Shown one piece after another: positions 25,258 through 43,992 of a stretch of 64,000 bases of DNA (the stretch's first letter is position 1; each line of letters starts with the position of its first letter). The translations under genes were made by a program, and so were the position numbers. The stretch spans positions 3,104-67,103 of the forward strand of contig CAYUYF010000016.1 in NCBI GenBank assembly GCA_964449145.1, read 5' to 3'. The notes beneath the pieces are model-generated. The model saw nothing but the letters and a program-made list of their open reading frames with translations, was not told the DNA's origin and did no database searches. This stretch comes from an uncultured Gemmatimonadaceae bacterium. GTDB taxonomy: Bacteria > Gemmatimonadota > Gemmatimonadetes > Gemmatimonadales > GWC2-71-9.

Positions 25258-28200
25258 CTACTTGACCAAGTCGAGGATCCCCCGAATCGGGATGCCCGCC
25301 CATGCCGGGCGATTGCCCAGCTCGTAGCGCAGTTCGTACAGCGCCTTGTCCAGGGCGTAGGTGTCGAGGAGCTGGGCCAGATCGGCCGGTGCCGCCGGCA
25401 GCAGTCTGGACTCCTTCACGGTGCGGCGGTACGCGTTGAGGAACACCGCCGAGACCGACTGTTCCCACAGCCGGGCCCACGGTTCCAGCCGCTCGGGGTC
25501 GGCGGCCCGGCGGGCGGCATGCGACTGCAGGGCCACCCGCGCGGCGTAGCTGAACGATCGCAGCATCCCCGCCAGATCCTTCAGGGGCGACTGCTTGGCC
25601 CGGCGTTCCGCGAGCGTACGGGCTGGCTCCCCCTCGAAATCCAGAATCACGAAATCCTGCCCGACCCGGAGCACCTGCCCCAGGTGGTAGTCGCCGTGAA
25701 TGCGGATCTTGAGCGAGCCGGGAGTCAGATCGGTGAGGCGCCGGATCCGGGTGAGGATCGCGGTGCGCTGGCTCAGGACCTGGCTGGCGAGTTCCACCAG
25801 CTCGTTGGGGAGCTTGGGCAGCGCCTCCTTGAGCATGTCGAAGGCCAGGGTGGCGTTGTTCTTGACCGCCTGCGCCAAAGCAGTGACGTCGGCTCCCCCC
25901 AGCGGCACCGGCTGGAACGCGGGATCGTCGGTCGGGGTGGCGAGCGCCAGGTGAAGCGCGGCCGTCTGGTGGCCCAGGGCCGCCGCGGCTTCGTCGGAGA
26001 CACCGAGCAACTCGGCGAGGTCCGGGGTCAGCCACTGCTCCCCCATATCCAGCCAGCCCGACGGACCGACCGCGTGGGTGGCATCGGCGGTGCGGGTCAC
26101 GGCGCGCTCGTAGTAGCGGCCCAGCTCCTCGATCATCCAGGTCCAGCCGTCACCCTGATTGGGGACCAGCCGCTGGATGAGGCCGAGGGTCGTGTCGGGG
26201 GTGTCAGGCGCGTGGTAGTCGAGGCTGCCGGCGAAGACCGGCACGCCGGTGAAGCGGACCCGTTCGGTAAGGTAACGAGTGATCTCGCAGTCGGGACTCG
26301 GGCCCACGTCCAGCCGGCGGAACACCTTGAGGATGAACTGGTCGCCAAAAATGATGGAACTGTTGCTCTGCTCGCCGCCGATCAGCGAGACCGGCCAGCC
26401 CGACGCCGGCGCGTCGGTCTCGGTCAGGGCCTTGCCGGGGGCGCCGGTCATCGACCCCACCTGGCCTGCGAGGCGGCCGCGATCCCGGGCCAGCGAGAGG
26501 AGCGCGCGGCAGACCTCTTCCGACAGCAGCGCATCGTGCAGCACGCCGCTCTCCCCGCCCTGGGTCAGGTTGCCGAGGATGGAGCCGGGGTGCGATTCCC
26601 GCACCTGTTCCGCGGCGGTGCCGAGGCTGACGGCCAGGGGCATCACATAACGCTCTCCGCCACCGTCGCTGAAGCGCACCGCCACCACCAATAGTCCCGC
26701 CTGGGCGGTAATGCGGCAGCCATCCTCGATCCGAAGGTGCTCGATGCGCCGCGCCTTACCGCTATACCAGCGCTGCCTGGGCAGGAAGGCCGGCAGGAAC
26801 CGCGACTCCAGCGCCGAGCGGAAGCCGTCCTCGAGCAGTCCTGCCCACGGCTCGCCGGTTCCCAGCACCAGCGCCGGCTCGGCCGCCGCCGGGCTGGGCT
26901 GTTCCTCGGGCCGGGTCTGCAGCTCCAGCCAGAGGAAGCCGTAGGGGCCGAGGGTGAGCGGGTAGGGCGTCTTGCCGATGCGGGGAAAGTCGACGTAGCC
27001 GCGCATTTCCACCGGAGTGGTACCGGCCAGGGCGGACAGGTCCAGTTCGAACGGCTGGGCGAAGCGCGACAGGTTGGCCACACACAACACCTGCTCCCCG
27101 TCGCTCTTGCGGAGGTAGGCCAGCACCTTCCGGTTGCTGGGCTCGAGGAACTCGATCGTTCCCCGGCCGAAGACCTGGAACAGCTTGCGGAGCGCGATCA
27201 TGTGCCGGATCCAGTTCAGCAGGCTGGAGGGCTCGCTCTGTTGGGCTTCGACATTCACGGCCTCATAGCCGTACACCGGGTCCATGACCAGCGGGCTGTA
27301 CAGCCGGCCGGGGGTGGCGCGGGAGAAGCCGGCATTCCGGTCGCCGCTCCACTGCATGGGGGTGCGGACCCCGTGCCGGTCTCCCAGGTAGATGTTGTCG
27401 CCCATCCCGATTTCATCCCCGTAATAGAGAATCGGCGTGCCGGGGAAGGAGAGCAGGATGCCGTGGAGCAGCTCGATGCGGTTGCGGTCGTTCTCCAGCA
27501 GCGGGGCCAGACGGCGCCGGATGCCCACGTTGACGCGCATGCGCGGGTCGGCGCTGTACGCGAAGTACATGTAGTCCCGCTCCTCGTCGGAGACCATCTC
27601 GAGCGTGAGCTCGTCGTGGTTGCGGAGGAACAGGCCCCACTGGCAGGTCGGCGGGATCGGGGGCGTGGCCTTCATGATCTCGGTGACGGGATGCCGGTCT
27701 TCCAGCCGGAGCGCCATGAACAGGCGGGGCATCAGCGGGAAGTGGAACGCCATGTGGCACTCATCGTCCTCCCCGAAGTAGGCCCGGACGTCCTCCGGCC
27801 ACTGGTTGGCCTCGGCGAGCAGCATGCGGCCGTCGTAGCCCTGGTCCAGGGCGGCGCGGAGCCGCTTGAGCAGGACATGGGTCTCCGGCAGGTTTTCGTT
27901 GTTGGTGCCCTCTCGCTCGATCAGGTACGGGATCGCGTCCAGCCGGAGCGCATCCACGCCGAGGTCGAGCCAGAATTGCATCACCTTGATGACCTCCTGC
28001 TCCACCACCGGGTTGTCGAAATTGAGGTCCGGCTGGTGGGAGAAGAACCGATGCCAGTAGTAACTCTTGGCCACCGGGTCCCAGCTCCAGTTGGAGGTGT
28101 GGGTGTCCGTGAAGATGACGCGGGTGCCGGCGTACTTGCTGTCGCTGTCGCTCCAGACGTAGAAATCGCGTTCCTGCGAGCCCGGCGCCGCCGTGCGGGC

Positions 28201-28563
28201 CGCCTGGAACCATGGGTGCTGGTCGGAGGTGTGGTTGATCACCAGCTCAATCAGGACCTGCATGCCCCGCTCGTGGGCGGCGGCGAGGAACTCCTGGAAG
28301 TCCTCCAGGGTGCCATAGCTGGGGTGCACGCTGGTATAGTCGGCGATGTCATACCCGTCGTCCCTGAGGGGCGAGGGGAAGAACGGCAGGATCCAGAGGC
28401 AGGTGACGCCCAGCTCCTCCAGGTAGTCGAGCTTCTCGATCAGGCCACGGAAGTCGCCGACGCCGTCCCCGTTGGCATCGTGGAAGCAGCGCACATGGAC
28501 TTCGTAAATGATCGCATCCCGGTACCAGAGCGGATCTGACGAGCTGCCCGGCCGTTTAATCAC
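25258..28563 (-). CDS. treS: Trehalose synthase (maltose alpha-D-glucosyltransferase) fused to maltokinase Pep2/Mak
   Basis: [36 protein letters not shown]; C-terminal [26 protein letters not shown]. Confidence 0.95.
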
Positions 28564-31475
28564 GACACCTCCACTGGAAGAGAAACGCCTGTCCGCGGCA
28601 CCGCCTGGCTGGTCGCCAGGAGCCCCCAGGGCAGGTCCGCGAGCACCTCCGGGATGGAAAGCCGGTGGGCTTCGGTCCGCACGGTGGCGCCGGTAAGTAG
28701 GTTGTGCCAGGCCGCCCCGGCGAGTTCCGGCGGCAGCTGAATGGTGGTCCCGGCCCAGGCCGGTCCCAGCGGGACTTGTTCGTTGTGATCCCAGCCCACC
28801 ATCTGGGCAGGGAGCCGCGGCACCAGGACCAGCACCGCCGAACTCCCGCGACTGCGCGCCAGGGCCACCAGGTGGCTGCCGGCAGGGCCGGTGGCCGACA
28901 GGGGACGATAGTCTCCCTCGAGGAACAGCTCCCGCTCCCGCCGCCGGAGCCGCAGGGCGGCCGCGGTCAGGAACAGCTTGATGTTGCCGCTGCGCCAGTC
29001 ACCGAGCACACCTGCCAGGCCGGCGGCCGGCTCCCCCCGCTCCACGCGATCCAGCATCGGTGCCAGTCGCTCCAGTTCCGCGCGGCGGGCCGCGAAATCC
29101 ACCGGCCGCCGGTTGTCCGGATCCACCAGGCTGAGGTCCCAGAGTTCGGTCCCCTGGTAGACGTCCGGTACCCCCGGCGCGGTCAGCTTCAAGAGCAGCT
29201 GTGAGCCCGAGTTGAGCATGCCGAGCCACGCCAGACGGTGAGCCACCGGCACGAACGACCGGAGAAACGCGGTGGAGCTGCGGCCGACCAGGACGGCCGC
29301 GACGAAATCCTCCACGGCCCGTTCGTACCGCACGACCGGATTGAGCCAGCTGGTATGCAGCTTGGCCTCCCGCATGGCCTTTCTCATGTATCCCTGCATC
29401 CGGTCCACCAGCGCCGGCCCCGACCGACCATTGCCGTCGGGCGGCCAGATCCCCGCCAGCGCCTGGTAGAACCGGTACTCGTCCACCGGCGCGGGGGCGG
29501 GTACTCCTGCGACGTCGGCGCGGGCGTCCCGGGTGACCCGGTGCCACCGGGTCACCAGCGCCTGCCACTGCCGGGGGATCTCCGAAATCACCGCCAGCCG
29601 GGACCGGGTATCCTCGCCCCACTTGGTGTCGTGCGTGGCGGTGGCGAGCATCGCCAGCGGCGCGTGCTGCTGGCGCTCCAGGTTGGCCGAGTGGAACTCC
29701 GCGACCGGATCCGCGCAGACGGTGGGCTCGCCCCCCACCTCGTTGAGTCCGGGGAGCGGGGCCCAGCGGTAGAAGGCGGTGTCCTCCACGCCCTTGGCCT
29801 GCACCGGGGCGGTGTACTGCTGGAACTTCATTGCGAAGCGGACCCGGCGGTCATGTTCCGCCGGGTCGGCAGCGGCGGGGAGGGACGGCAGCAGCATCCC
29901 GCGGATGAACCCGAAGATCGTGGGCTCCAGGGCCGGGTTGCGGCGCAGTGCCTCGGCGATCACCTGATCCACCATGGCCGCGTCCGCGGGCGTCGACCCG
30001 TCGGGCCGGACGTAGGTGCGATAGACCGGAAAGCATGCCACCACCTCCCCCAGCGCCTCCTGCAGGCTGTCGAGGGTGAAGTCCCGGTAGCGGCGGTCAC
30101 TCTCGGAGATCCGGTTGAGCGCCGCGGCGAGCACGTTGAGCTCCGCCGCCATGGAGGTGGCGATGATGGCCTTCTTGCTGGTGTACACCACCTCCGCGAA
30201 TGGCCGGTCCTCGCCGATGAACCGGGCGCAGTAGCGGCTGAGCGCGGCCACTCCGGCGGGATCGACAAACACCGCGTTGACCCGATTCAGGAACTCGTAT
30301 CCCGTGGTGCCATGCACCGGCCATTCCGGGGGGAGCCGCTCGCCGGGTGAGAGGATCTTCTCGACCAGGGTCCAGGCGGGACCGCCCTCGGCCAGCCGCT
30401 CGGCCAGTTGCCGCAGGTAGTGACCCGGCTCGAACAACCCATCCACGTGGTCCAGCCGCACGCCGGTCACCGCACCCTCGGCCACCAGCTGCGCCAGCAG
30501 GCTGTGGGTGGCCTCGAAGACCGCGGGCTCTTCCTGCCGGATTCCCGCCAGCTCGTTCACGTCGAAGAAGCGCCGGTAGTTGATCTCGTGCATCGCGGTG
30601 CGCCAGGACGCCAGTCGGTAGGGCTGGGCCTCAAGCAGCCGGTGCAGCAGGTCCATGGAGGCCGGCTGGCCGGCGGTGCCGTTGAAGGCCGCGACGTTTC
30701 GCTCCACATGGACCCGCACCAGCGGAGACCGGGCGAGGAGAGCCTCCAGCCGACCCAGCGCCACTTCCTTCTCCCGCCGCCGGGCATCCACCAGCGCCAG
30801 CTCGGTGGTGGTGTAGACCGGCAGGTGCTCCAGGTGAAAGAGGATGCTCTGGAACTCGGTGAGGTCGGGATCAGCAGGGGTCAGCGCCCGCACGAGTTCC
30901 GCCAGATTGTGCTCCAGCACCATCCGCAACTGGCGCGGATTGAGCGGGAGCTCATGATCGAAGTAGTGCAACACCATTCCTGTCGGTGCCAGCACCAGCC
31001 TGAGCTGGCCGGCTTCCAGGGTGACGCCGTACTGGTCTCCGAGGATGGGCAGCAGCAGGCGGCCCTTGAGCTCCGGCTTGACGGGGTCCCAGTCGATGTC
31101 GAAATAGGCCGCATACGGGGAGGACGGGCCGTTCTCCAGCACGCTCCGCCACCAGGAATTGGCGGTCGGATCCGCCGCCATGTGGTTGGGGACGAAATCC
31201 ACCACGATCCCCATGCCGTGTGCCTTGGCCGTCTGTGCCAGCTCCAGAAATCCCGCGGCGCCGCCCAGGTCCTCATTCAGGCGGCTGTGATCGCAGACGT
31301 CGTAGCCGTGTGGGCTCTGCGGCCGGGCCGCGAGCACCGGCGAACAGTAGCACTCGGTGACGCCAAGCTCCGCCAGGTAGGGCAGCAGCCGGGTCGCCTC
31401 ACGAAATCCACATGCAGCGCCGAGCTGGAGCCGGTAGCTGGTCAGCGGCAGGCGAGCCGGGGCGGGGGTCGGCAC
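28560..31475 (-). CDS. treY: Malto-oligosyltrehalose synthase
   Basis: SYRLQ, STHGYD-like [47 protein letters not shown]; start placed at GTG 31475. Confidence 0.94.
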
Positions 31476-31477
31476 CG

Positions 31478-33355
31478 TCAGACGCCTCCGGTGCGGGTAC
31501 CCAGCAGGACCGCACCTGGCTCGGTGAACTCCACGGCGCAGCGGTCCGTGGCCACGGTGATCGGCGCCGCACCAGCCGCAGCCGCATCCGCTCCCGTGGA
31601 GAGAAGCAGATGCCACCGCTGACCGGGGCCGAGCCTGCTCATCGGGTGTCCCTCCAGCTCCACCTGCCCGGCCCCCGACAGGCAGACGATGGCCAGGATC
31701 GTGCTGGCGCCGCCGGTCTCCCGGCGCACAAGGAGGATGTCGTCCCCGAGGTCGGCGATCTCACAGTCGCCCTCCACCAGCGCCGCCTCGGTGCGCCGCA
31801 GCCGGAGCAGGTGACGGTAGAGCAGGAGGGTGCTGCGGTGCGGTTCCCGCTCCCGTTCCAGCCAGTCGAGGCGGCTCGCCACAAAGGTGGCCTCGGCCTG
31901 GGGATCGGGGATGCGCTCCCGGGCGGCGGGATCGCGGAAGGCGGCGAAGCGGGCGAATTCGGATCGCCGCCCGTTGCGCACCGCCTCACCCAGTTCCGGG
32001 TTGTGATCCGTGAAGTACAGGAATGGGCTGCTGGCGGCCCACTCCTGACCCATGAAGAGGAGCGGCGTCTGTGGCAGCACCAGGAGCAGGGCCGAGGCCG
32101 CCCGATAGGCGGCCGGAGCGATGAAATGGTGCAGCCGGTCCCCCAGCGCCCGGTTGCCGACCTGGTCATGGTTCTGGAGGAAGAACACGAATCTCGTTGC
32201 CGCCAGCCCGGCGGGATCGGTCCCCCTCGGCGCGCCAAAATACTCGGCGTACTGACCCATGTAGAACCAGCCGCGGAGCGCGGTCGCCGCGATGTCGGCG
32301 GCGGAGCCGGAGAAATCGCCGAAGTAGCCATCGGCGTCGCCGGCCAATTTGCGGCGCATCTGGTGGTGGAAGTCGTCCGACCAGGCCGCGTCGAGGCCGG
32401 CGCCGCCCTCCGCTTCCGGCTTGACCAGGTAGGCCAGGTTACGCACCTCCTCCGCGATCACCAGCGCCACCCGCCCCTCGGCACGGGCGGCCTGATGCAC
32501 CGCCTCGGCCAGCGCGGTGAGGATGTGCCTCGGACTCTCGTCGTGGATCGCGTGGGTGGCGTCGAGCCGGAGGCCGTCAAGGTGATACTCGGTGATCCAG
32601 GCGACCGCATTCGCGATGACATACTCGCGTACCGGCGCACTGCCCGGTCCATCAAAGTTGATGGCCGCTCCCCAGGGGGTGCGATGGGCGGCGGAATGGT
32701 ACTGACCGGAGAAGGTACCCTGATAGGCGCCATCGGGGCCGAGGTGGTTGTAGACCACGTCGAGATGTACCGCCAGTCCCAGGCGGTGCGCCTCGTTGAC
32801 CAGGGCGCGGAGGTCGTCGGGCGGCCCATAGCACCGGGCGGGCGCAAACGGCGCGACCCCGTCGTAGCCCCAGTTCCGGTCGCCTGGAAAATCCGCAACA
32901 GGCATCAGCTCGATGGCGGTGACGCCGAGGTCCACGAGGTCGGGCAGGCGCGCGGCGGCCGCCCGAAAGGTGCCTTCGGGAGTGAAGGTGCCCACGTGCA
33001 GCTCGTACAGGACCAGCCGCTCGAGGGGAACCCCCGTCCAGTCGGCGTCGGCCCACGGGTACGCCGCCGGATCCACGACTTCGGATGGGCCGTGCACCCC
33101 GGTGGGCTGGAAACGCGAGGCAGGATCCGGGAAGGGGCCGGCACCGTTGACCAGGAACCGGTACCTCGTGCCGGGACCGGCGGCGGGGTGGGTCAGCTCG
33201 AACCAGCCTTCCCGAGTTGGCGCCATCGGGGCCGGGGGGCCGGCGCCCGCTTCGATGACAAGTTCCACCCGCGTGGCCTCGGGCGCCCAGACCCGGAATC
33301 GGGTCCCTTCGGCGCCCAGCCACCTCGGCCCGGCGTCCGGGCCCCGGCGTGTCAC
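31478..33355 (-). CDS. treZ: Malto-oligosyltrehalose trehalohydrolase
   Basis: [52 protein letters not shown]; GTGA overlap with the glgB stop. Confidence 0.94.
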
Positions 33356-35264
33356 GCGGAGTCCTCCGGGCGCGGCCCGCGAAAGGCCACCACCGACAGC
33401 GGCGGCAGGGTGAGCGCGAGCGACCATGGGCGGCCGTGGGCGGCGGCGGGGGCCGCTTCCACCCCGCCGAAGTTGCCTACGCCGCTGCCGCCGTAGAGCG
33501 CGGCGTCGCTGTTGAGGATCTCGGTCCAGTAGCCGCCATCGGGGATGCCCACGCGATAGTCCCCGCGTACCACGGGCGTGAAGTTGCAGACGAACAGCAC
33601 CACCTGGCCGGGCTCCCGTCCGCGCCGAAGGAAACTCACCACGCTCCGCTGGTTATCGTTGCAGTCCACCCACTCGAACCCGCTGGGCTCGAAATCCACG
33701 GCGTGGAGGGCCGGCTCCGCGCGGTAGCAGGTGTTGAGGTCACGGACCCAGCGCTGCAGGCCGCGGTGGTCCGCCTCCTCCAGCAGGTGCCAGTCGAGGC
33801 TCGCCTCGTGGTTCCACTCCCGCCACTGGCCGAACTCGCCGCCCATGAACAGCAGCTTCTTCCCCGGGTGCCCGTACATGTAGCCGTACAGGGCGCGGAG
33901 ATTGGCGAAGCGCTGCCACCGGTCCCCCGGCATCCGGCCGATCATCGAGCCCTTGCCGTGGACCACTTCGTCATGGGAGAACGGCAGCACGAAATTCTCG
34001 CTGAAGGCGTACATCATCGAGAACGTGATGGCGTTATGGTGGTGGCTCCGGTGCACCGGCTCCCGCCCCATGTAGTCCAGCATGTCGTGCATCCAGCCCA
34101 TGTTCCACTTGAACCCGAAGCCCAGCCCGCCAAGGTAGGTGGGACGCGAGACCATCGGCCAGCTGGTGGACTCCTCGGCGATGACCGTGGTGCCGGGGTA
34201 ATCCAGATGCAGCTGCTCATTGAGGGTACGGAGGAAGTCCACCGCCTCGAGGTTCTCGCGGCCGCCGTACTTGTTCGGCACCCACTCCCCGGATTGCCGG
34301 GCGTAGTCGAGGTAGAGCATCGAGGCCACGGCATCCACGCGCAGCGCATCAATGTGGTAGCGGTCCAGCCAGAACATCGCGTTGCTGAGCAGGAACGCCC
34401 GGACCTCGTCACGGCCGTAGTTGAAGACAAACGTGTCCCAGTCGGGATGGTGCCCCTGGCGCGGGTCGGCGTGCTCGTAGAGGTGGGTGCCGTCGAAATA
34501 GGCCAGGCCGATCTCATCGCGGGGGAAGTGGGCCGGCACCCAGTCCAGAATGACCCCGATGCCCCGGCGGTGCAGGGTATCCACCAGGTACATCAGGTCC
34601 TCCGGCGTCCCGTAGCGGGAGGTGGGCGCAAAGTACCCGGTGACCTGGTAGCCCCACGAGCCGTAGAAGGGATGTTCGGCCAGGGGCAGGAGCTCCACGT
34701 GGGTAAAACCCTGGGCCTCGACGTAATCGGTCAGCGCGCCGGCCATTTCCCGGTAGCTCAGCCAGCGATGTTTCCCGTCCTCGTAGGTGCGGCGCCAGGA
34801 ACCGAGGTGCACTTCGTAGATGGACATCGGCGCGTCGTGGATCTTGGCGGCAGACCGGGCGGCCAGCCAGTCACCGTCCCCCCAGGCATAGGCCGGCGCC
34901 CGCGCCACGCGGGAGGCGGTCTTCGGCGGGAGCTCGGTGGCAAAGGCGAAGGGATCGGCCTTGTCGGCGGTGAAGTGGCCGTCGCGGGAGACTACCCGGT
35001 ACTTGTACCCGGTGCCGGGCGTGACTTTCGGAATGAAGCACTGCCACACCCCGCGGTCGGTGGGAGACATCGGATGCGCGTTGGGGTCCCAGCCGTTGAA
35101 GTCGCCGATGACCGAGACCCGGCCTGCGTTCGGCGCGACCACCGCGAAGCGCACGCCGGCGCCACCGGGGCCGTTGGCCTCGTGCGCGCCCAGAATCCGG
35201 TAGATCCGGCAGGCCGAGCGGTCGCCCAGCTGCGTGAACTCGTCGTGGGTCAGTGTCGCGGTGA

Positions 35265-35268
<4 letters not shown>
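33352..35268 (-). CDS. glgB: 1,4-alpha-glucan branching enzyme
   Basis: [45 protein letters not shown]; ATGA overlap with the glgX stop. Confidence 0.96.
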
Positions 35269-37409
<2,141 letters not shown>

Positions 37410-37552
37410 AACTGGAATGCTCTCACTCTCCGGCGCGATGCCGTGCGCCCAGTGGCTCGTCGTTCGGCTCCCGGCCGACCCGGTCCTGAGTTCGCCGACT
37501 GCCGGCGCAATCCTGCAAGTACTTGTGAATCCTAGTGATATCAATGTAACTT

Positions 37553-37582
37553 GGGCGACCTGTTGATATCAACATATCGCCC
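37553..37582. promoter_or_regulatory. 30-bp palindrome in the glgX / glycosyltransferase divergent intergenic region
   Basis: GGGCGA-cc-TGTTGATATCAACA-ta-TCGCCC; perfect 14-bp core at 37561-37574. Confidence 0.6.
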
Positions 37583-37632
37583 GTTGCCGCGAGCTGCCGC
37601 ACGTTTCCTCCTTGCTCACGCCGGAGTCGCTG

Positions 37633-38886
37633 ATGCCGGACAAATTCACGCTGTCACCGGAAGTCGAGGCCGACCTCGGCTCGATTGGCGGCGTGGAGCT
37701 CGCAGTGGCGGTGAGCGCACTGGAGCGTCCCGAGGAGGCCGGGAAGGCCATCGCCACGGTCCGCGCCGGCCTGGCGGAGCGATTTCCCGGCGTGAAGGCG
37801 GTGGTCCTGCATCTCCATGGCGGCACGCCGCACGCCGACGCGCCCCCGGCGCCGGGCGACATCCCGGTCCTGAATCTCCTGTGCCGGGACAGCGGCCCGG
37901 GCGGGACGCCGTGGCCCCGCGCCATCGCGCTGCGGCTGGCCTTCGAGTCCAGCCACCGGCTGGGCGCCAAGGCCGCGGCCGTCGTCGGTGCGGAGGTGGC
38001 GAGCCTGACCCCCGCGTGGATCGGACAGCTGCTCGAGCCGGTGGTGCGACAGGGTCACGACCTCGTCACGCCCTACTACCTTCGCCATCCGTACAGCGGT
38101 GCGGTCACCAGCGGGCTGATTTACCCGCTCATCCGCGCCCTGTACGGCAAGCAGCTGCGGTACCCGCTGGGCGCGGAATTCGCCTGTTCCGCCCGCCTGA
38201 TCGAACGTGAGCTGCGCGCGACCTCCCGGCGCAGCCAGCCCGGGCCCCAGTCGCGCGAACTGCAGCTGCTGGCAGAGGCGGTGGGAAACGGCTGGGGCAT
38301 CTGTCAGGCGGTGCTGGGTCCCCGCACCCTCGTGGCTGGCGAAGGCACGACCGGCCTTGCCGGCGTCCTGCAGGACGTCCTCTCCCAGGTGTTCGCGGAG
38401 ATGGAACGCTCCGCCGCCACCTGGCAGAAGCTGCGGGGGTCCGCCGCGGTGGATCTGGCGGGGGCGGTGGACGGGGCGACGATCGAGCCGGTGCCGCTCG
38501 AACACAAGCGGCTCGTGGACGGCTTCCGGCTGGGCCAGCAGAACCTCCAGGATGTCTGGGGACTGGTGCTTCCTCCCAGTACGCTGGTTGAACTGAAGAA
38601 GATGGCCCGGCTGGGGGAAGCGGACTTCCGTATGCCCGACCGGCTCTGGGCCCGGATCGCCTTCGATTTCTCGCTGGCCTGCCGGGTCCGGGTGATGAGC
38701 CGCGACCACCTCATGGGGGCGCTGGTGCCCTTGTATCTCGGCTGGCTGGGTTCGTTGCATACCGAGCTGGGCGATGCACCGCCCGCCCGGGTTGAAGCGC
38801 GGCTGGAGCAGCTGTGTCTGCAGTTCGAGGCGGAAAAGCCATACCTGATCTCGCGGTGGCGGTGGCCCGATCGTTTCATTCCCTGA
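37633..38886 (+). CDS. GpgS/glucosylglycerate synthase-like GT-A glycosyltransferase homolog with degenerate catalytic motifs
   Basis: PYYLRHPYSGAVTSGLIYPLIRALYG..RYPLGAEF and C-terminal FEAEKPYLISRW match the family; DxD position reads GAE; alternative TTG start at 37612. Confidence 0.75.
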   Translation: MPDKFTLSPEVEADLGSIGGVELAVAVSALERPEEAGKAIATVRAGLAERFPGVKAVVLHLHGGTPHADAPPAPGDIPVLNLLCRDSGPGGTPWPRAIALRLAFESSHRLGAKAAAVVGAEVASLTPAWIGQLLEPVVRQGHDLVTPYYLRHPYSGAVTSGLIYPLIRALYGKQLRYPLGAEFACSARLIERELRATSRRSQPGPQSRELQLLAEAVGNGWGICQAVLGPRTLVAGEGTTGLAGVLQDVLSQVFAEMERSAATWQKLRGSAAVDLAGAVDGATIEPVPLEHKRLVDGFRLGQQNLQDVWGLVLPPSTLVELKKMARLGEADFRMPDRLWARIAFDFSLACRVRVMSRDHLMGALVPLYLGWLGSLHTELGDAPPARVEARLEQLCLQFEAEKPYLISRWRWPDRFIP

Positions 38887-38915
38887 CCGGACCGCGCGCC
38901 GGAGGAGGAGGAGTC

Positions 38916-39617
38916 ATGTGGACCCAGATTGACGACGCTCTGCGGGAGTCCCTGGGCCGGGTGCTGACCAGCCTGGCCAGCCTGCTGCCCGGGCTGGTGG
39001 CACTGCTCCTGTCGGTGCTGCTGGCGGTGCTGCTGGGCGCGCTTGCCCGGTGGGTCCTGGTCGGGCTGCTCCGCGCCTTCCGGTTCGACCAGCGGCTGGA
39101 ACGCTGGGGGGTGTCGGCGCTGGCGGAGTGGTCGCCGGAGCGCAGTCCCACTCTGCTGGTGGGCCGGCTGGCGCACTGGATGCTGGTGCTGCTCGGCGCG
39201 ATCATCGGCCTGGCCGCGCTGGACCCGACGTTGATGTCCACGATGCTGGGACGCCTGGGGACCTACCTGCCCAACGTCTTTGTTGCGGTGCTGCTGATGA
39301 TCATGGGCTCGATCCTGGCCCGGTTTCTCGCCCGTGGGGTCCTCATCAGTGCGGTGAACATGCAGCTGCATTCGGCCCGGCTCATGAGCCTGGGGGTCAA
39401 GTGGCTGGTGCTGCTGCTGACGGTGGCCATGGCCCTCGATCATCTGAGTATTGGCGGCACCATCTTGCAGCTGGCTTTCGGCACCCTGTTCGGCGGCATC
39501 GTGCTGGCGCTGGCCCTGGCGGTGGGGCTAGGATCCAAGGAAATCGTCAGCAAGTCGTGGGAACGTCAGGCGGATCGCCAGGCGGACCGGACCGAGCCGC
39601 CACTCGAGCACCTGTAA
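38916..39617 (+). CDS. MscS-related 'conserved TM helix' repeat membrane protein (CmpX-like), no cytoplasmic cage domain
   Basis: Two TM-helix-type repeats (SLLPGLVALLL; TYLPNVFVAVLL), C-terminal LALAVGLGSKE; GGAGGAG RBS. Confidence 0.75.
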   Translation: MWTQIDDALRESLGRVLTSLASLLPGLVALLLSVLLAVLLGALARWVLVGLLRAFRFDQRLERWGVSALAEWSPERSPTLLVGRLAHWMLVLLGAIIGLAALDPTLMSTMLGRLGTYLPNVFVAVLLMIMGSILARFLARGVLISAVNMQLHSARLMSLGVKWLVLLLTVAMALDHLSIGGTILQLAFGTLFGGIVLALALAVGLGSKEIVSKSWERQADRQADRTEPPLEHL

Positions 39618-39632
39618 GCGGGAGTCATCGTC

Positions 39633-41627
39633 ATGCACGCGAGCGACGGGCGGCGACGGGTCGTCATCGAGAAGGTCAAGCCAGAGATCGACGACGCGCG
39701 GTTTCCCATCAAGCGGGTCGTGGGAGAAGCCGTGGTCGTCACGGCGGACGTCTTCGGCGATGGACACGATGCGGTGGCCTGCGTGCTGCGCTACCAGGGC
39801 CCGGGGATGAGCGAGTGGCGCGAGCTCCCCATGGAGCCGCTGGGCAACGACCGGTGGAGGGCCAGCTTCCGGGTCGCCGAGCTGGGCCTCTACCACTACA
39901 CCGTGGAGGGCTGGGCCGACCGGTTTCTCACCTGGCGGCGTGACCTTGCCCGCCGACTGGAGGCGCCCGATCAGGATCTCGAGCCGGAGCTGGAGATCGG
40001 GGCCCGGTTGCTCGAGGCCACCGCCCGGCGGGCGGATCGCACCGACGCCGCCCAGCTCACGGCATGGGTCGCCGACCTGCGCGCACCCGGCGCCCCCGCC
40101 GACCGCGCGGCCATCGCCCTCGACCCGGAGCTGGAGGCCGTGGCCGCCCGCTGGCCCGACCGGAGCCTGTCCACGCGGTACCCGCGTGAGCCCGGCGTCC
40201 GCGTGGAACGGCCCCGCGCCCGGTACAGCACCTGGTACGAACTGTTCCCGCGATCCACCAGCGCCACGCCGGGCCGGCACGGGACCTTCGCGGACGTCGA
40301 GAAGCGGCTGCCTGACATCGCCGACATGGGCTTCGACGTGCTCTACCTCCCCCCGATCCACCCGATCGGACGGAGCTTTCGCAAGGGGCCCAACAACAGT
40401 CTGGTCGCCGGGCCAGAGGACGTGGGAAGTCCGTGGGCCATCGGAGCGCGCGAAGGCGGGCACACCGAGATTCTCCCCGCGCTAGGCTCCGCGGAGGACT
40501 TCCAGCGACTCGCCCGGGCCGCCAGCCAGCGGGGCATCGAGCTGGCCATGGATATCGCGTTCCAGTGCTCACCCGACCACCCCTGGGTCACCGCCCATCC
40601 CGAGTGGTTCCGCCACCGGCCGGATGGGAGCATCCAGTACGCCGAAAACCCGCCCAAGAAGTACCAGGACATCTTTCCGCTGGACTTCGAGACGGAGGAC
40701 TGGAAGGGCCTGTGGGAGGCGCTCAAGCAGGTGGTGCTGTTCTGGGCCGAGCGGGGCGTGCGGATCTTCCGGGTGGACAACCCGCACACCAAGGCCTTCG
40801 GCTTCTGGGAATGGATGATCCGCGAGGTCCAGGCGGCCTACCCCGACACCATCTTTCTGGCCGAGGCCTTTACCCGCCCCAAGGTGATGTATCGCCTGGC
40901 CAAGCTGGGCTTCTCGCAATCGTACACCTACTTCTCGTGGCGCAACACCCGGCAGGAGCTGGTCGAGTACTTCACCGAGCTGACCCGGACGGAGGTGCGT
41001 GAGTTCTTCCGCCCCAACCTGTGGCCCAACACTCCGGATATCCTGACCGAGTACCTGCAGATTGGCGGCCGGCCGGCCTTCCAGCTGCGGGCGATCCTCG
41101 CGGCGACGCTGGGGGCAAGCTATGGGATCTACGGTCCCGCCTTCGAGCTGCTCGAACACCGGCCGCGCTCGCCCGGGAGCGAGGAATATCTCGACTCGGA
41201 GAAATTCCAGATCCGGCACTGGCAGCTGGACGCGCCGCACAGCCTGCGCCCCCTGCTCACCCGCCTCAACCGGGCCCGGCGGGAGAACCCCGCACTGCAG
41301 CGTGACGCCGGACTGCTGTTCCACCCGGTGGATAACCCGCTGCTCGTGTGTTACAGCAAGACCAGCGAGGACGGCCTGCACGCCGCGCTGGTGGTGGTGA
41401 ACCTGGACCTGCAGCACCGGCAGGCGGGATGGGTCCGGCTCGACCTGGACGCTCTGGGCCTGGAAGAGGGCCTGCCGTTTCAGGTGGAGGACGCGCTGAG
41501 CGGCAGCCGCTACCTGTGGCAGGGCTCCGCCAACTATGTGGAGCTCGATCCGGCGAGCATGCCGGCCCATCTGTTCCGGATCCGGCGGAAGGTGCGGAGC
41601 GAGCGGGACTTCGACTACTACCTCTGA
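39633..41627 (+). CDS. glgE: Alpha-1,4-glucan:maltose-1-phosphate maltosyltransferase
   Basis: VVIEKVKPEID, WYELFPRS, YLPPIHPIG, GSPWAIG, QCSPDHPW, YAENPPKKYQDI, FRVDNPHTK, AEAFT. Confidence 0.96.
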   Translation: MHASDGRRRVVIEKVKPEIDDARFPIKRVVGEAVVVTADVFGDGHDAVACVLRYQGPGMSEWRELPMEPLGNDRWRASFRVAELGLYHYTVEGWADRFLTWRRDLARRLEAPDQDLEPELEIGARLLEATARRADRTDAAQLTAWVADLRAPGAPADRAAIALDPELEAVAARWPDRSLSTRYPREPGVRVERPRARYSTWYELFPRSTSATPGRHGTFADVEKRLPDIADMGFDVLYLPPIHPIGRSFRKGPNNSLVAGPEDVGSPWAIGAREGGHTEILPALGSAEDFQRLARAASQRGIELAMDIAFQCSPDHPWVTAHPEWFRHRPDGSIQYAENPPKKYQDIFPLDFETEDWKGLWEALKQVVLFWAERGVRIFRVDNPHTKAFGFWEWMIREVQAAYPDTIFLAEAFTRPKVMYRLAKLGFSQSYTYFSWRNTRQELVEYFTELTRTEVREFFRPNLWPNTPDILTEYLQIGGRPAFQLRAILAATLGASYGIYGPAFELLEHRPRSPGSEEYLDSEKFQIRHWQLDAPHSLRPLLTRLNRARRENPALQRDAGLLFHPVDNPLLVCYSKTSEDGLHAALVVVNLDLQHRQAGWVRLDLDALGLEEGLPFQVEDALSGSRYLWQGSANYVELDPASMPAHLFRIRRKVRSERDFDYYL

Positions 41628-41708: not shown

Positions 41709-42314
41709 TCACTCCAGCCGCACGGCCTCCAGCGCGATCGTGATCTCCACCTCGTTGCCGATGAGGGTATTCGCGCCGACGACCGTGTTCCATTCCATGC
41801 CGTAGTCACGGCGGTCGATGGTCGTGGTCGCGTCGAACGCCACCCGATCGTGCCCGTCGGAGTCCTTGGTCACGCCGCGGTACTGGCCGGTGAAGCGCGC
41901 CGGGTGTGAGCGGCCCTTGATGGTCAGCACGCCGACTACTTCGGCGGTGGTATCGCTCATGGAGAGGCCGGTGCCGCGGAACTTCATTTCCGGGAAGCTG
42001 TCCACCGCGAAGAACCGCCCGCTGCGCAGGTCGGCATCGCGGAGCGCGTTGCCGGTAGTGAGGCTGGCGGTCTGGACGATCACATCCACCCGGCCGCTGC
42101 GGAGTCCGCGGCTGTCGGTGGTGATCACCGCGTACCAGTTGGTGAAGCTGCCGCGCACCCGCCCCACCAGGTGGCGAACCCGGAAGTCGATCTGGGAGTG
42201 AACGATATCCACCACCCAGCGGTCCCCCGGGGGGGGCACTGGCGTCTGGGCGGCGAGCACGCCGGTCAGGCCGGTCACCAGCATGCCAGCCACCACCGCT
42301 GTCCGTGGGATCAT
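41709..42314 (-). CDS. YceI-family lipid/polyisoprenoid-binding protein, exported
   Basis: HSQIDFRVRH, SLTTGNALRDADLRS..FF, TIDRRDYGM; signal peptide from ATG 42314. Confidence 0.88.
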   Translation of the reverse strand: MIPRTAVVAGMLVTGLTGVLAAQTPVPPPGDRWVVDIVHSQIDFRVRHLVGRVRGSFTNWYAVITTDSRGLRSGRVDVIVQTASLTTGNALRDADLRSGRFFAVDSFPEMKFRGTGLSMSDTTAEVVGVLTIKGRSHPARFTGQYRGVTKDSDGHDRVAFDATTTIDRRDYGMEWNTVVGANTLIGNEVEITIALEAVRLE

Positions 42315-42628
42315 GAGGCCGCTCCACCTGAGGGTCTCCGGCCAAACTAGCCTCGTCAGGTGAAGGTGCCATGAGAATAGGCGGAAATGGGCCATGGCTC
42401 GGTGCCGGCGGCCCAGACGGCGAAGACAGGGGCGGGGGTGCCAGGTCCGCAAGCTCCACCAGGGTCGGAGATGTCTCCGGGCCACACGGACGCCGGCCCG
42501 GGACGCCACGCCGAACCCAGACCTGAGCCCCCCCCGGCGGTGCGCGGCGAGCATGGAGCGCCGCAGCCCCCCCTTCTAGATTTCCCGTCCGGGGTCCCTT
42601 CCTGCCAACATCTGCTCCCACGAGCCCA

Positions 42629-43744
42629 ATGCGCTACCGCCGCATGCCCATCGAAGTCGAGTCTCCCGAAGAGATCGGCTACGGCTCCATCCGCTGCAAC
42701 CTTGCCGAGAGTTCGATCCGCGATCGAATCCTGGGTGAACTCGACCTCGGTCCCGACCTCGCCCGCTGTGTGCTGCAGTACGGCGATCATCGCGGTCACC
42801 CGGAGTTCCGTGGCGCCCTGGCCGTGGAGGCCGGCTGCTCCCCCCGGGAAGTGCTGCTGACCCCGGGGGCGGTGGGCGCACTGTTCTTCGTCCATACCGC
42901 GCTGCTCTCCCCGGGAGACCACCTGGTGGTCCTGCGACCGAACTATGCCACCAATCTGGAGACGCCGCGGGTCATCGGCTGTGAGGTCAACCACCTCGAC
43001 CTCACCTTCGAGGCCGGGTTTCGCTACACCGCCGACGACATCGCGGCGCTGCTGCGGCCCACGACCCGGCTGGTGAGCCTCACCACTCCCCACAACCCCA
43101 CCGGCACGGTCCTCCCGGCCGGGGAGCTCGCCCGCATCGCTGAGCTGTGCCGGGTCCACGGCGCCCGGCTGCTGGTGGACGAGACCTACCGCGACTTGAC
43201 GCCCAGCGGGCCGCCGCCGCTGGCCACCCAGCTCGGCGAGCACGTCATCAGCGTCGCGTCACTGTCCAAGGCGTACGGGTTGCCGGGCCTGCGGGTCGGG
43301 TGGCTGGCAACCAGGGACCCGGCCCTGGCAGAACGATTCCTCGCGGCCAAGGAGCAAATCGTCATCGCCGGGCCGATACTGGACGAGGAAATCGCCTGGC
43401 GGGTCTACGCCCGCCGCCGCAACCTGCTGCCGGGCATCCTGGCGGATGTGGCGATGCGCTCCGCAGTGCTGCGGCGGTGGATGGCGGGGCAGGGCACCCT
43501 CGAATGGGTGGAGCCGGAAGCAGGGGTTGTTGCGTTCCCCCGGATCAAACCAGCCCTGGATGTGGACGTCGAGCGATTCTACGGTGTCCTCAACGAGACC
43601 TACGCCACCTGGGTCGGTCCCGGCCACTGGTTCGAGCAGGACCGGCGCTATATGCGGCTCGGTTTCGGATGGCCCACCCCCACGGAGCTGGAGGAGGGGC
43701 TCTCCAATATCGGGTTGGCGCTTGCGGCCGCGACCGGGGCCTGA
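42629..43744 (+). CDS. Class I/II PLP-dependent aminotransferase
   Basis: TPHNPTG, LVDETY, SLSKAYGLPGLRVGW. Confidence 0.9.
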   Translation: MRYRRMPIEVESPEEIGYGSIRCNLAESSIRDRILGELDLGPDLARCVLQYGDHRGHPEFRGALAVEAGCSPREVLLTPGAVGALFFVHTALLSPGDHLVVLRPNYATNLETPRVIGCEVNHLDLTFEAGFRYTADDIAALLRPTTRLVSLTTPHNPTGTVLPAGELARIAELCRVHGARLLVDETYRDLTPSGPPPLATQLGEHVISVASLSKAYGLPGLRVGWLATRDPALAERFLAAKEQIVIAGPILDEEIAWRVYARRRNLLPGILADVAMRSAVLRRWMAGQGTLEWVEPEAGVVAFPRIKPALDVDVERFYGVLNETYATWVGPGHWFEQDRRYMRLGFGWPTPTELEEGLSNIGLALAAATGA

Positions 43745-43992
43745 CGTCACGCCAGTCCCCCCTCCGGGCTCCCCTCCGCCCTCGCCCAGTGGTTCCGGTG
43801 AATCCTGGCACGCCTACGGTCGTAGTAGCCGATGGACGATCCAACCCAGGGACACCAGCCGGTATCCAATGGGGGCATTCGCAAACCGGCCGGTTGCTCA
43901 GGTCCCTTTCATATAAGTCTATGTCCCTCTCGTGTCTCTTGTCGGAGCTCCAGGTGCTGCCACCACACCAGTTGGCCCCCGTACGGGACGCG

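Follow-up and report, generated by a model that had tools for sequence, protein, structure and literature searches.

An eroded glycosyltransferase of the glucosylglycerate synthase type, paired with a small membrane protein in a Gemmatimonadaceae trehalose/α-glucan cluster: a candidate pseudoenzyme

Introduction

Persephonella marina is the source of a characterised glucosylglycerate synthase (Ggs, EC 2.4.1.268; Fernandes et al. 2007, as cited in PMC3736172). The present work describes a relative of this enzyme encoded by an open reading frame (ORF) at positions 37633-38886 of a 64,000-nucleotide stretch ("the window") of contig CAYUYF010000016.1, assembly GCA_964449145.1, from an uncultured Gemmatimonadaceae bacterium. 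Mannosylglycerate synthase (MGS) binds its metal through a DxD motif and a His, both of which are absent from the window protein. In GpgS, the metal ligands are D134, D136, and H258 (M. tuberculosis numbering), and the window protein keeps just a Glu at the D136 position. Pseudo-glycosyltransferases are represented by Cosmc/C1GALT1C1, a GT31-derived chaperone devoid of DxD, and by streptococcal GtfB, the non-catalytic partner of GtfA. To our knowledge, they are rare in bacteria, streptococcal GtfB being the main example.

The gene from the window has lost the residues that handle the nucleoside diphosphate (NDP)-sugar and the metal, is maintained under purifying selection, is transcribed, and adjoins a gene encoding a 233-residue membrane protein. 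We read its product as a pseudo-glycosyltransferase that has been retained as a cytoplasmic partner for this membrane protein, with a probability of about 0.6. The features of the locus are collected in Table 1.

Table 1. Positions of the glycosyltransferase gene, its motifs, and its neighbours in the window.
Feature	Coordinates	Strand	Basis or remark
GGAG ribosome-binding site, 6 nt before ATG 37633	37623..37626	+	read from sequence
Pseudo-glycosyltransferase candidate, Ggs/MGS-type GT-A with eroded catalytic motifs, 417 residues	37633..38886, including stop	+	ORF, translation
Degenerate nucleotide-binding loop HLHGGTPHAD, residues 60-69	37810..37839	+	intact form [NS]-D-G-G-S-x-D-G-T; D62 to His, S65 to Thr, D67 to His
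Arg96 replacing the Lys of P-G-K-G	37918..37920	+	Lys in 97% of intact representatives and in GpgS
G119-A120-E121 at the DxD position, first Asp lost, last acid Glu	37987..37995	+	alignments, model
Acceptor loop RHPYSGAVT, residues 151-159	38083..38109	+	intact form R-H-K-Y-D-G-T-I-T; R151, H152, G156, T159 kept; K153, D155, T157 lost
Leu233 where L-G-A-K-x-H-D (LGVRAHRNR in GpgS) has its metal-binding His	38329..38331	+	alignments
C-terminal helical domain, residues 263-417, best-conserved part	38419..38886 (domain end 38883, stop 38884-38886)	+	helices 291-409 in model; most family-wide invariant residues
C-terminal RWRWPDRF motif marking the eroded subfamily, residues 408-415	38854..38877	+	at least 90% conserved in 185 relatives
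Membrane protein, 233 residues, about six predicted helices, two PF05552 "MscS conserved TM helix" units, invariant partner	38916..39617	+	Pfam, NCBIfam
glgE, maltose-1-phosphate maltosyltransferase gene, separated from the preceding gene by 15 nt	39633..41627	+	Pfam GlgE_dom_N_S 199 bits, GLGE_C
Divergent α-glucan/trehalose ORFs: treS-mak 25258-28563, treY 28560-31616, treZ 31478-33427, glgB 33352-35370, glgX 35265-37544	25258..37544	-	Pfam in orthologous loci

Fold and Family Membership

Searches of the 417-residue protein in Pfam, NCBIfam, and PADLOC, and in the PDB with the single sequence, returned nothing useful, and its family is therefore recognised only by profiles and structure. When a family profile is compared with the PDB, GpgS is the only family matched (E-value 3e-4); the stretches DSGSTDDT, IDSDLI, and LGVRAHRNR of Mycobacterium hassiacum GpgS align on the three segments that had been flagged as degenerate by an earlier inspection of the letters alone (hereafter the sequence-only reading). 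A model obtained with AlphaFold (AF2) from 30 homologues has a mean predicted local distance difference test score (pLDDT) of 85.9 and a predicted template modelling score (pTM) of 0.87, and displays the alternating strands and helices of a GT-A fold over residues 23-228. Foldseek relates this model to 208 PDB entries at E-values of at most 1e-3, led by MGS, GpgS, ArnC, and GtrB. The best match is Rhodothermus marinus MGS (2bo4/2y4j; E-value 7e-13, template modelling score 0.62-0.70, about 415 columns), which covers both domains, and the runner-up is mycobacterial GpgS, matched over the GT-A domain part.

The window clade, a set of 31 members (A5), was aligned using hhalign with 18 motif-intact Ggs-like relatives (A4), giving a probability of 100%, an E-value of 2.8e-85, and 27% identity over 409 columns. 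In this alignment, "Lh~Hagg" falls on "nSDGGS~D~T", "pR~aA" on "pGKGSA", "lgaeV" on "vDsDL", and "LGpRtv" on "LGaKiHD", and the acceptor loop RHPYSGAVT is matched to RHKYDGTIT. The homology is full-length and the architecture is that of Ggs and MGS, a GT-A domain followed by a C-terminal helical domain. Several more distant homologues match Pfam Glycos_transf_2 or MGS_GT (PF21969), and MGS_GT is matched by some of the intact members. Intact members also match the NCBIfam GpgS model NF010496 at E-values of 1e-12 to 1e-15, and the signal declines from 1e-15 through 2.5e-6 and 0.04 to no match for the window protein. The assignment to the GpgS/MGS/Ggs type with eroded donor and metal motifs is thus upheld by profile, hhalign, and Foldseek. 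The gene descends from a retaining GT-A enzyme of the glucosylglycerate synthase type (Ggs/MGS-like), and has kept the fold and both domains.

The reading frame itself is intact, as first claimed: the start at ATG 37633 agrees with the N-termini of orthologues, and the frame stays open to the stop codon, the protein ending in ..LISRWRWPDRFIP. The G+C contents of third and second codon positions (GC3 0.85, GC2 0.50) are like those of other genes of this window of 69% G+C, and a long shadow ORF runs opposite the gene on the other strand. Homologues number more than 1400, the nearest being in metagenome-assembled genomes of uncultured Gemmatimonadales, and the 31 members of the window clade are full-length close orthologues with intact frames. 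No second, intact glycosyltransferase paralogue was found within the window by tblastn, and an Rfam scan of positions 37000-40000 returned no match.

Loss of the Catalytic Residues

The erosion was gauged against 36 representatives of 50% identity clusters that possess the full motif set and lack the C-terminal tail described below. In these, the donor and metal residues are 97-100% conserved, and 47 positions are conserved at 90% or more, of which the window protein keeps 21; such an erosion is far beyond chance. Replaced residues are P28, D62, S65, D67, K96, G97, D119, D155, T157, Q177, G181, G207, and H233, to which conservative exchanges are added (D121E, D209E, K231R). Every donor or metal position common to GpgS has been lost (P28, D62, S65, D67, K96, G97, D119, H233), with D121 staying as Glu.

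The nucleotide loop reads H-G-G-T-P-H, and the Lys of PGKG, present in 8% of the tail-subfamily representatives, is found in none of the 31 window-clade members, 28 of which have Arg96. Both Asp of the DxD motif are 100% conserved in the intact representatives. In the window clade, position 119 is occupied by Gly (21), Asp (7), or Glu (2), and position 121 by Glu (26) or Asp (4). In the AF2 model, the strand formed by residues 114-119 (β4) ends at G119, just before A120-E121, which identifies GAE as the topological DxD site. An alternative intact DxD elsewhere in the window protein was considered and ruled out, the end of β4 falling on GAE; its absence is borne out by the model and by hhalign. 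The metal-binding His, 100% conserved in the intact representatives, belongs to a position that is free in the window clade (Val 15, Leu 9, Met 2, Arg 2). The strings on which the sequence-only reading was built stand at the places it gave (HLHGGTPHAD, AVVGAEVA around GAE, LGPRTLVAGE at 38314-38343, and Leu233), and its motif assignments are confirmed by the profile alignment to GpgS, hhalign, and the AlphaFold model.

Two of these assignments need to be nuanced. The G-I-D segment, said to be lost as SRELQLL, has changed, but only from Asp to Glu, and Glu is GpgS's own residue. The acceptor side, said to be well preserved, retains R151, H152, G156, and T159, but K153, D155, and T157 are gone. 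Entropy in the window clade reaches 1.41 bits at the former catalytic positions taken together, compared with an average of 1.35 bits for the GT-A domain and 0.43 bits for retained positions. Positions 65, 67, 97, and 233 vary freely, and R151, H152, and G156 are invariant.

Some positions of the former active site have acquired new conserved residues. These are H62 (28/31, often within an H-x-H), R96 (28/31), E121, Y177, E209, and R231 (29/31), encoded in part at 37810-37818, 37918-37920, 37993-37995, and 38323-38325.

Selection and Transcription

Among the five closest orthologues, the gene shows a ratio of non-synonymous to synonymous substitution rates (dN/dS) of 0.14-0.24 at dS 0.47-0.84, with the proviso that dS computed by NG86 is approximate in a genome of 69% G+C. 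The corresponding values are 0.08-0.15 for glgE and 0.06-0.17 for the membrane-protein gene. Along the protein, dN/dS falls from 0.26-0.33 in the N-terminal, donor-binding half, the least constrained part, through 0.14-0.18 over residues 101-262 to 0.10 over residues 331-417, the most constrained part. The orthologues are therefore not in neutral decay and the gene is kept under selection; the C-terminus, which also holds most of the family-wide invariant residues, is well preserved, as had been noticed at first sight.

Transcription is indicated by a sludge metatranscriptome, in which contig depth, a poor measure of expression, is about 77-130 for the glycosyltransferase gene, about 80 for the membrane-protein gene, about 40 for glgE, and 2-11 for glgX. 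A DNA run of the same study has a flat depth of about 27, so that the uneven RNA signal is unlikely to be mere DNA carry-over. Enzyme homology, loss of key residues, purifying selection, and transcription together place the gene within the operational definition of a pseudoenzyme; inactivity itself is predicted from sequence.

Metagenomes from sludge, freshwater sediment, and algae-associated samples contain DNA nearly identical to 37633-39617 (at least 95% of sampled words), and 69% of the sampled words of this interval occur in a sludge metatranscriptome. The organism appears to be a widespread Gemmatimonadales bacterium of wastewater and freshwater.

Recurrent Erosion across the Tail Subfamily

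The erosion is broader than the sequence-only reading made it, and not confined to this gene: it recurs across a subfamily of Gemmatimonadota and Acidobacteriota in hundreds of species. The family profile, searched against 1.84 billion cluster representatives, retrieves 823 clusters at E-values of at most 1e-30, and the family is present in at least 524 GTDB species. The best 150 of the 823 cluster representatives fall into two groups: a tail subfamily ending in ..YLISRWRWPDRF, in which the whole clade of the window protein counts as a single representative, and a tail-less subfamily ending in ..KPYLxERW... The motif RWRWPDRF is present in 66 of these best 150 representatives, and the motif-intact subfamily has ..KPYLxERW.. 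instead.

In a set of 185 distinct close and mid-range relatives, only 13 combine the nucleotide loop, D-x-[DE], and the His; 44 are similar to the window protein, with the last acid alone kept, and 22 have none of these elements. A neighbour-joining tree displays a stepwise loss of motifs toward the window protein. The His is replaced in most Gemmatimonadales relatives, by Gln in the closest motif-bearing lineages and by Pro or Gly in others. The nucleotide-loop Asp became His in the ancestor of the window clade, the sister lineage still having D-A-[DE], and Asp119 became Gly in the inner clade. Independent loss of these residues is seen in another large clade, from Acidobacteriota (ASD, ASS, ASQ, ASK, GSD).

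The complete set of five key residues is present in 10 of 230 tail members, versus 35 of 90 tail-less members. Fitch parsimony on the tree of these 320 sequences yields a root that is intact and tail-less, with 18-43 state changes per character; the counts of losses are rough because the tree is a neighbour-joining one and the sample is biased, but the asymmetry and the recurrence remain clear. The catalytic residues have been lost many times in the RWRWPDRF-tail subfamily of Gemmatimonadota and Acidobacteriota. The tail subfamily is a derived branch, which relocated to GlgE/TreS clusters and would then have given up catalysis.

The Membrane-Protein Partner

The gene that follows is the constant companion of the glycosyltransferase. 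It is located directly downstream in 85 of 86 tail-subfamily loci examined by tblastn, the single exception being a contig end. In the motif-intact, tail-less subfamily, a homologous gene of about 230 codons occupies the same place in 70 of 80 metagenomic loci, with 27-44% identity, most of the others being contig ends. The same arrangement in both subfamilies indicates that the pair is ancestral. It holds across phyla, with or without glgE nearby, and the membrane protein is the most conserved of the trio formed with the glycosyltransferase and GlgE.

Its relation to MscS is limited. PF05552 is the only Pfam match (31 bits, in two stretches), the PF00924 pore/vestibule domain is absent, and the NCBIfam msc model NF033912 gives 62.6 bits, below its cutoff of 100. 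The AF2 model, built with database homologues, is of moderate quality (pLDDT 74, pTM 0.46). No significant PDB match of the partner was obtained by sequence or fold, the best being a local 90-column match to MscS (6vyk, probability 0.63). Synteny speaks strongly for the proposed functional link to the adjacent MscS-like protein, but the partner is not a bona fide MscS.

The two genes are out of frame with each other, and none of the best 150 cluster representatives is a fusion of the two proteins; those that are fused carry GpgS or TrkA/RCK-like modules, and one is a tandem triplication. These unusual proteins belong to the motif-intact Ggs-like group (P0271, P0291, P0374, P0312, P0295) and comprise GpgS-fused forms (1061, 748, and 730 residues), a form with a TrkA/RCK-like C-terminus (622 residues), and the triple tandem (1179 residues). 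A conserved ..H-L closes the partner sequence in both subfamilies (the window and loci L092-L171), and in the tail subfamily the partner possesses a highly conserved loop, FD.R....G......WSP..SP, at residues 57-78. Judging from this conservation, the ..H-L end and the FD.R loop are candidate contact sites for the tail of the glycosyltransferase. Literature searches on the pairing of the two proteins returned no description of it.

Genomic Neighbourhood

The glycosyltransferase and membrane-protein genes are separated by 29 nt, the membrane-protein gene and glgE by 15 nt, all three being on the same strand. No terminator-like site was detected on the + strand between them, in a promoter and terminator scan that was otherwise uninformative. 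glgE is probably on the same transcript as the other two. This order is conserved in loci L001, L004, L005, and L088-L090. The statement that the gene heads the glgE operon is thus true only here and in close Gemmatimonadales relatives; gene order differs in Acidobacteriota, and the constant partner is the membrane protein rather than GlgE.

The window does not display a glucosylglycerate operon: its neighbouring genes are glgX, glgB, treZ, treY, treS-mak, and glgE, the names treS-mak and treY being assigned by correspondence with Pfam-annotated genes at the same positions in L001, L002, and L004. Tail-subfamily genes are mostly found beside glgE, glgB, or treS-mak, a context seen in 1 of 80 loci of the intact subfamily. 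Several tail loci nevertheless possess the pair without any GlgE-pathway gene within 6-10 kb (L007/L018, L023, L027, L037, L043). Genes of the intact subfamily neighbour those of GpgS, an MPGP-family phosphatase, and glycerate 2-kinase, i.e., a gpgS-ggs-msc-gpgP operon, and this context is confined to the intact subfamily. The operon of P. marina is reportedly in agreement with such gpgS-ggs-gpgP-type operons, and the characterised P. marina Ggs would belong to the intact tail-less subfamily.

Further observations concern the surrounding genes. In locus L149 (3325-4899), the GpgS of a gpgS-ggs-msc-gpgP operon (NF010496, 383 bits) is fused to a phosphotransferase system (PTS) EIIA/PtsN-like domain (residues 365-503), which looks like a nitrogen-PTS-type regulatory module on a glucosylglycerate enzyme. 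The glgX ORF of the window is listed from a TTG at 37544 as 759 residues and its orthologues are called at 714 residues; its true start is probably about 45 codons further in, and a later start would make for a wider divergent promoter region shared with the glycosyltransferase gene. The treZ region of L001 (3852-5730) is called as two ORFs (340 and 301 residues), and glgE of L002 (11986-14011) is called at 515 residues without its N/S domain after a gap of 478 nt; these may be frameshifts or long-read assembly errors. Beyond glgE, the ORFs at 41709-42554 (- strand), 42629-43744 (+), and 43147-46644 (+) have L001 counterparts with the Pfam families YceI, aminotransferase, and DUF5916. Their order is conserved in the closest relatives, and they appear unrelated to the glycosyltransferase-membrane protein module.

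Proposed Function and Alternatives

As a pseudo-glycosyltransferase, the window protein would have stopped transferring sugar from a nucleotide sugar (Leloir-type transfer), and would act in a complex with the membrane protein, in which it would be the cytoplasmic subunit, its constrained C-terminal domain and its tail forming the docking surface. The remodelled, charged pocket (H62, R96, E121, R151, H152, R176, E209, R231) would bind a small anionic metabolite. Coupling would then run from metabolite or osmotic state to the membrane protein, or in the opposite direction, as part of the trehalose/α-glucan osmoadaptation cluster, a location that suggests osmotic or storage-carbon control. The pair is found in gpgS-ggs-msc-gpgP operons in the motif-intact relatives, and in the tail subfamily it has moved into GlgE/TreS/GlgB clusters. 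The terms "catalytically dead", "sensor", and "gating" that had been put forward for this protein are to be taken as hypotheses.

A more specific scenario is tentative, and we would sooner bet against it than for it. A Ggs-derived, dedicated cytoplasmic ligand sensor would dock via its invariant C-terminal domain and RWRWPDRF on a small, hitherto unrecognised channel made of MscS-type helices, the ensemble forming a two-component osmolyte/metabolite valve or tension sensor. It would have arisen in glucosylglycerate operons and been rewired to the GlgE cycle in Gemmatimonadota and Acidobacteriota, catalysis being discarded once sensing sufficed.

Several points weigh against a pseudoenzyme kept as a membrane-protein partner. 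A minority tail lineage from Terriglobia (P0049, P0053, P0072) has all the catalytic residues in the same GlgE context and with the same partner, which means that the module can work with an active enzyme. Glu121, at the metal-binding DxD position of GpgS, is kept in 26 of the 31 members of the window clade (30 of 31 being acidic), as are R151, H152, G156, T159, and E209 in the protein, and a non-canonical active site is thereby possible. Physical contact between the two proteins is deduced from the adjacency of their genes. To these are added the approximate nature of the dS values and the weakness of contig depth as a gauge of expression.

The retained residues lead to the first alternative, in which the protein is still enzymatically active through a remodelled site. 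Such an enzyme might be a GT-A that is metal-independent or uses a single carboxylate, or else a transferase or phosphorylase with a non-nucleotide donor (maltose-1-phosphate, glucose-1-phosphate, or trehalose), and could then do without the nucleotide loop, the His, and the first Asp. Metal-independent GT-A enzymes without DxD do exist, e.g., GT14 C2GnT-L. The conservation of E121, E209, R96, R231, Y177, and H62 in the window clade, the invariant R151, H152, and G156, and the low dN/dS over residues 101-262 are in line with such an enzyme, as are the vicinity of glgE and treS-mak, with their sugar-phosphate substrates, and the Terriglobia members that are fully intact in this same setting. 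However, the ex-catalytic positions as a set are at background variability, four of them (65, 67, 97, 233) being free, and the same erosion is observed in loci devoid of glgE. Moreover, sister lineages have lost the third DxD position too (DGA, DAG, DAQ, ASS, ASK, ASQ) and share no common replacement motif, which speaks against a single new chemistry shared by the whole subfamily. A remodelled enzyme is thus an unlikely explanation, although it is the main rival.

The second alternative dispenses with a direct interaction with the membrane protein: the glycosyltransferase would be a scaffold or regulator of GlgE-pathway enzymes (GlgE, TreS-Mak, GlgB), and its adjacency to the membrane-protein gene would reflect inherited operon order. 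Since the intact subfamily is almost never found in that context, relocation to the GlgE cluster goes together with the tail and with erosion, a point in favour of such a role. Nevertheless, it is the pair and not glgE that is invariant, the membrane protein is the most conserved of the trio, and the persistence of the pair without GlgE-pathway genes makes a GlgE scaffold less likely; we grant it a slim chance. Finally, a decaying pseudogene or an ORF mis-called in a high-G+C genome, as might be suspected from the empty Pfam and NCBIfam searches and the long shadow ORF, is ruled out by the dN/dS and codon values, the more than 1400 homologues and 31 orthologues, the confident fold, and transcription.

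With the pseudo-glycosyltransferase reading, annotation becomes an issue. Joint Genome Institute records label several members "glucosylglycerate synthase", eroded ones included. The window protein should not be so annotated, since by its residues it fails at DxD, His, nucleotide loop, and Lys; labels of this kind based on KEGG Orthology are probably wrong for eroded members and would inflate metagenome predictions of glucosylglycerate production. More generally, the change from enzyme to non-enzyme appears to have been repeated many times in one family, whose intact, intermediate, and eroded members form a natural series. The conserved two-gene module, a Ggs-type glycosyltransferase with a 233-residue membrane protein of MscS helices, is distributed across soil and sludge phyla. 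It joins glucosylglycerate synthesis and the trehalose/α-glucan cycle to a membrane component, and could explain osmotic sensing or relief in soil bacteria that are abundant though poorly cultured.

Comparison with Known Systems

Ggs, as represented by the intact tail-less subfamily, is the closest relative: it shares with the window protein full-length homology, the two domains, and the downstream membrane-protein gene. In contrast, neither the DGGSxD loop nor the PGKG Lys is present in the window protein, which is also without the first DxD Asp and the metal His and has a changed acceptor loop. It possesses the RWRWPDRF tail and resides in a GlgE/TreS cluster, whereas Ggs-like proteins end in ..KPYLxERW.. 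and belong to a glucosylglycerate operon. In mycobacteria, methylglucose lipopolysaccharide is primed by glucosylglycerate (PMC2674218). This primer role may be one rationale for the association, in the intact tail members, of a Ggs-type gene with those of glucan enzymes.

R. marinus MGS (GT78; 2bo4, 2y4j, 2y4k) is the best structural match and covers both domains, but its identity is just 15-16%, and we know of no membrane partner for it. GpgS (GT81; M. tuberculosis and M. hassiacum) matches by profile, with its nucleotide loop, DxD, GGRVT-type acceptor loop, Glu, and His segments aligned; unlike the window protein, it has no C-terminal helical domain, and the window protein scores nothing on the GpgS model.

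Cosmc and GtfB offer a functional parallel, that of a glycosyltransferase fold selected after motif loss and acting by protein-protein contacts, as would be the case for the window protein. They derive, however, from other glycosyltransferase families and have other partners, with neither an MscS-like protein nor a link to osmolytes or α-glucans. An mscS gene reportedly lies in the ectoine cluster of Nitrosopumilus maritimus (Widderich et al. 2016). Such osmolyte clusters resemble the intact gpgS-ggs-msc-gpgP operons in having a channel-like gene beside osmolyte synthesis. The partner described here differs in its size of only 233 residues, in its PF05552 units without PF00924, and in being tied to one enzyme family even after the decay of its motifs.

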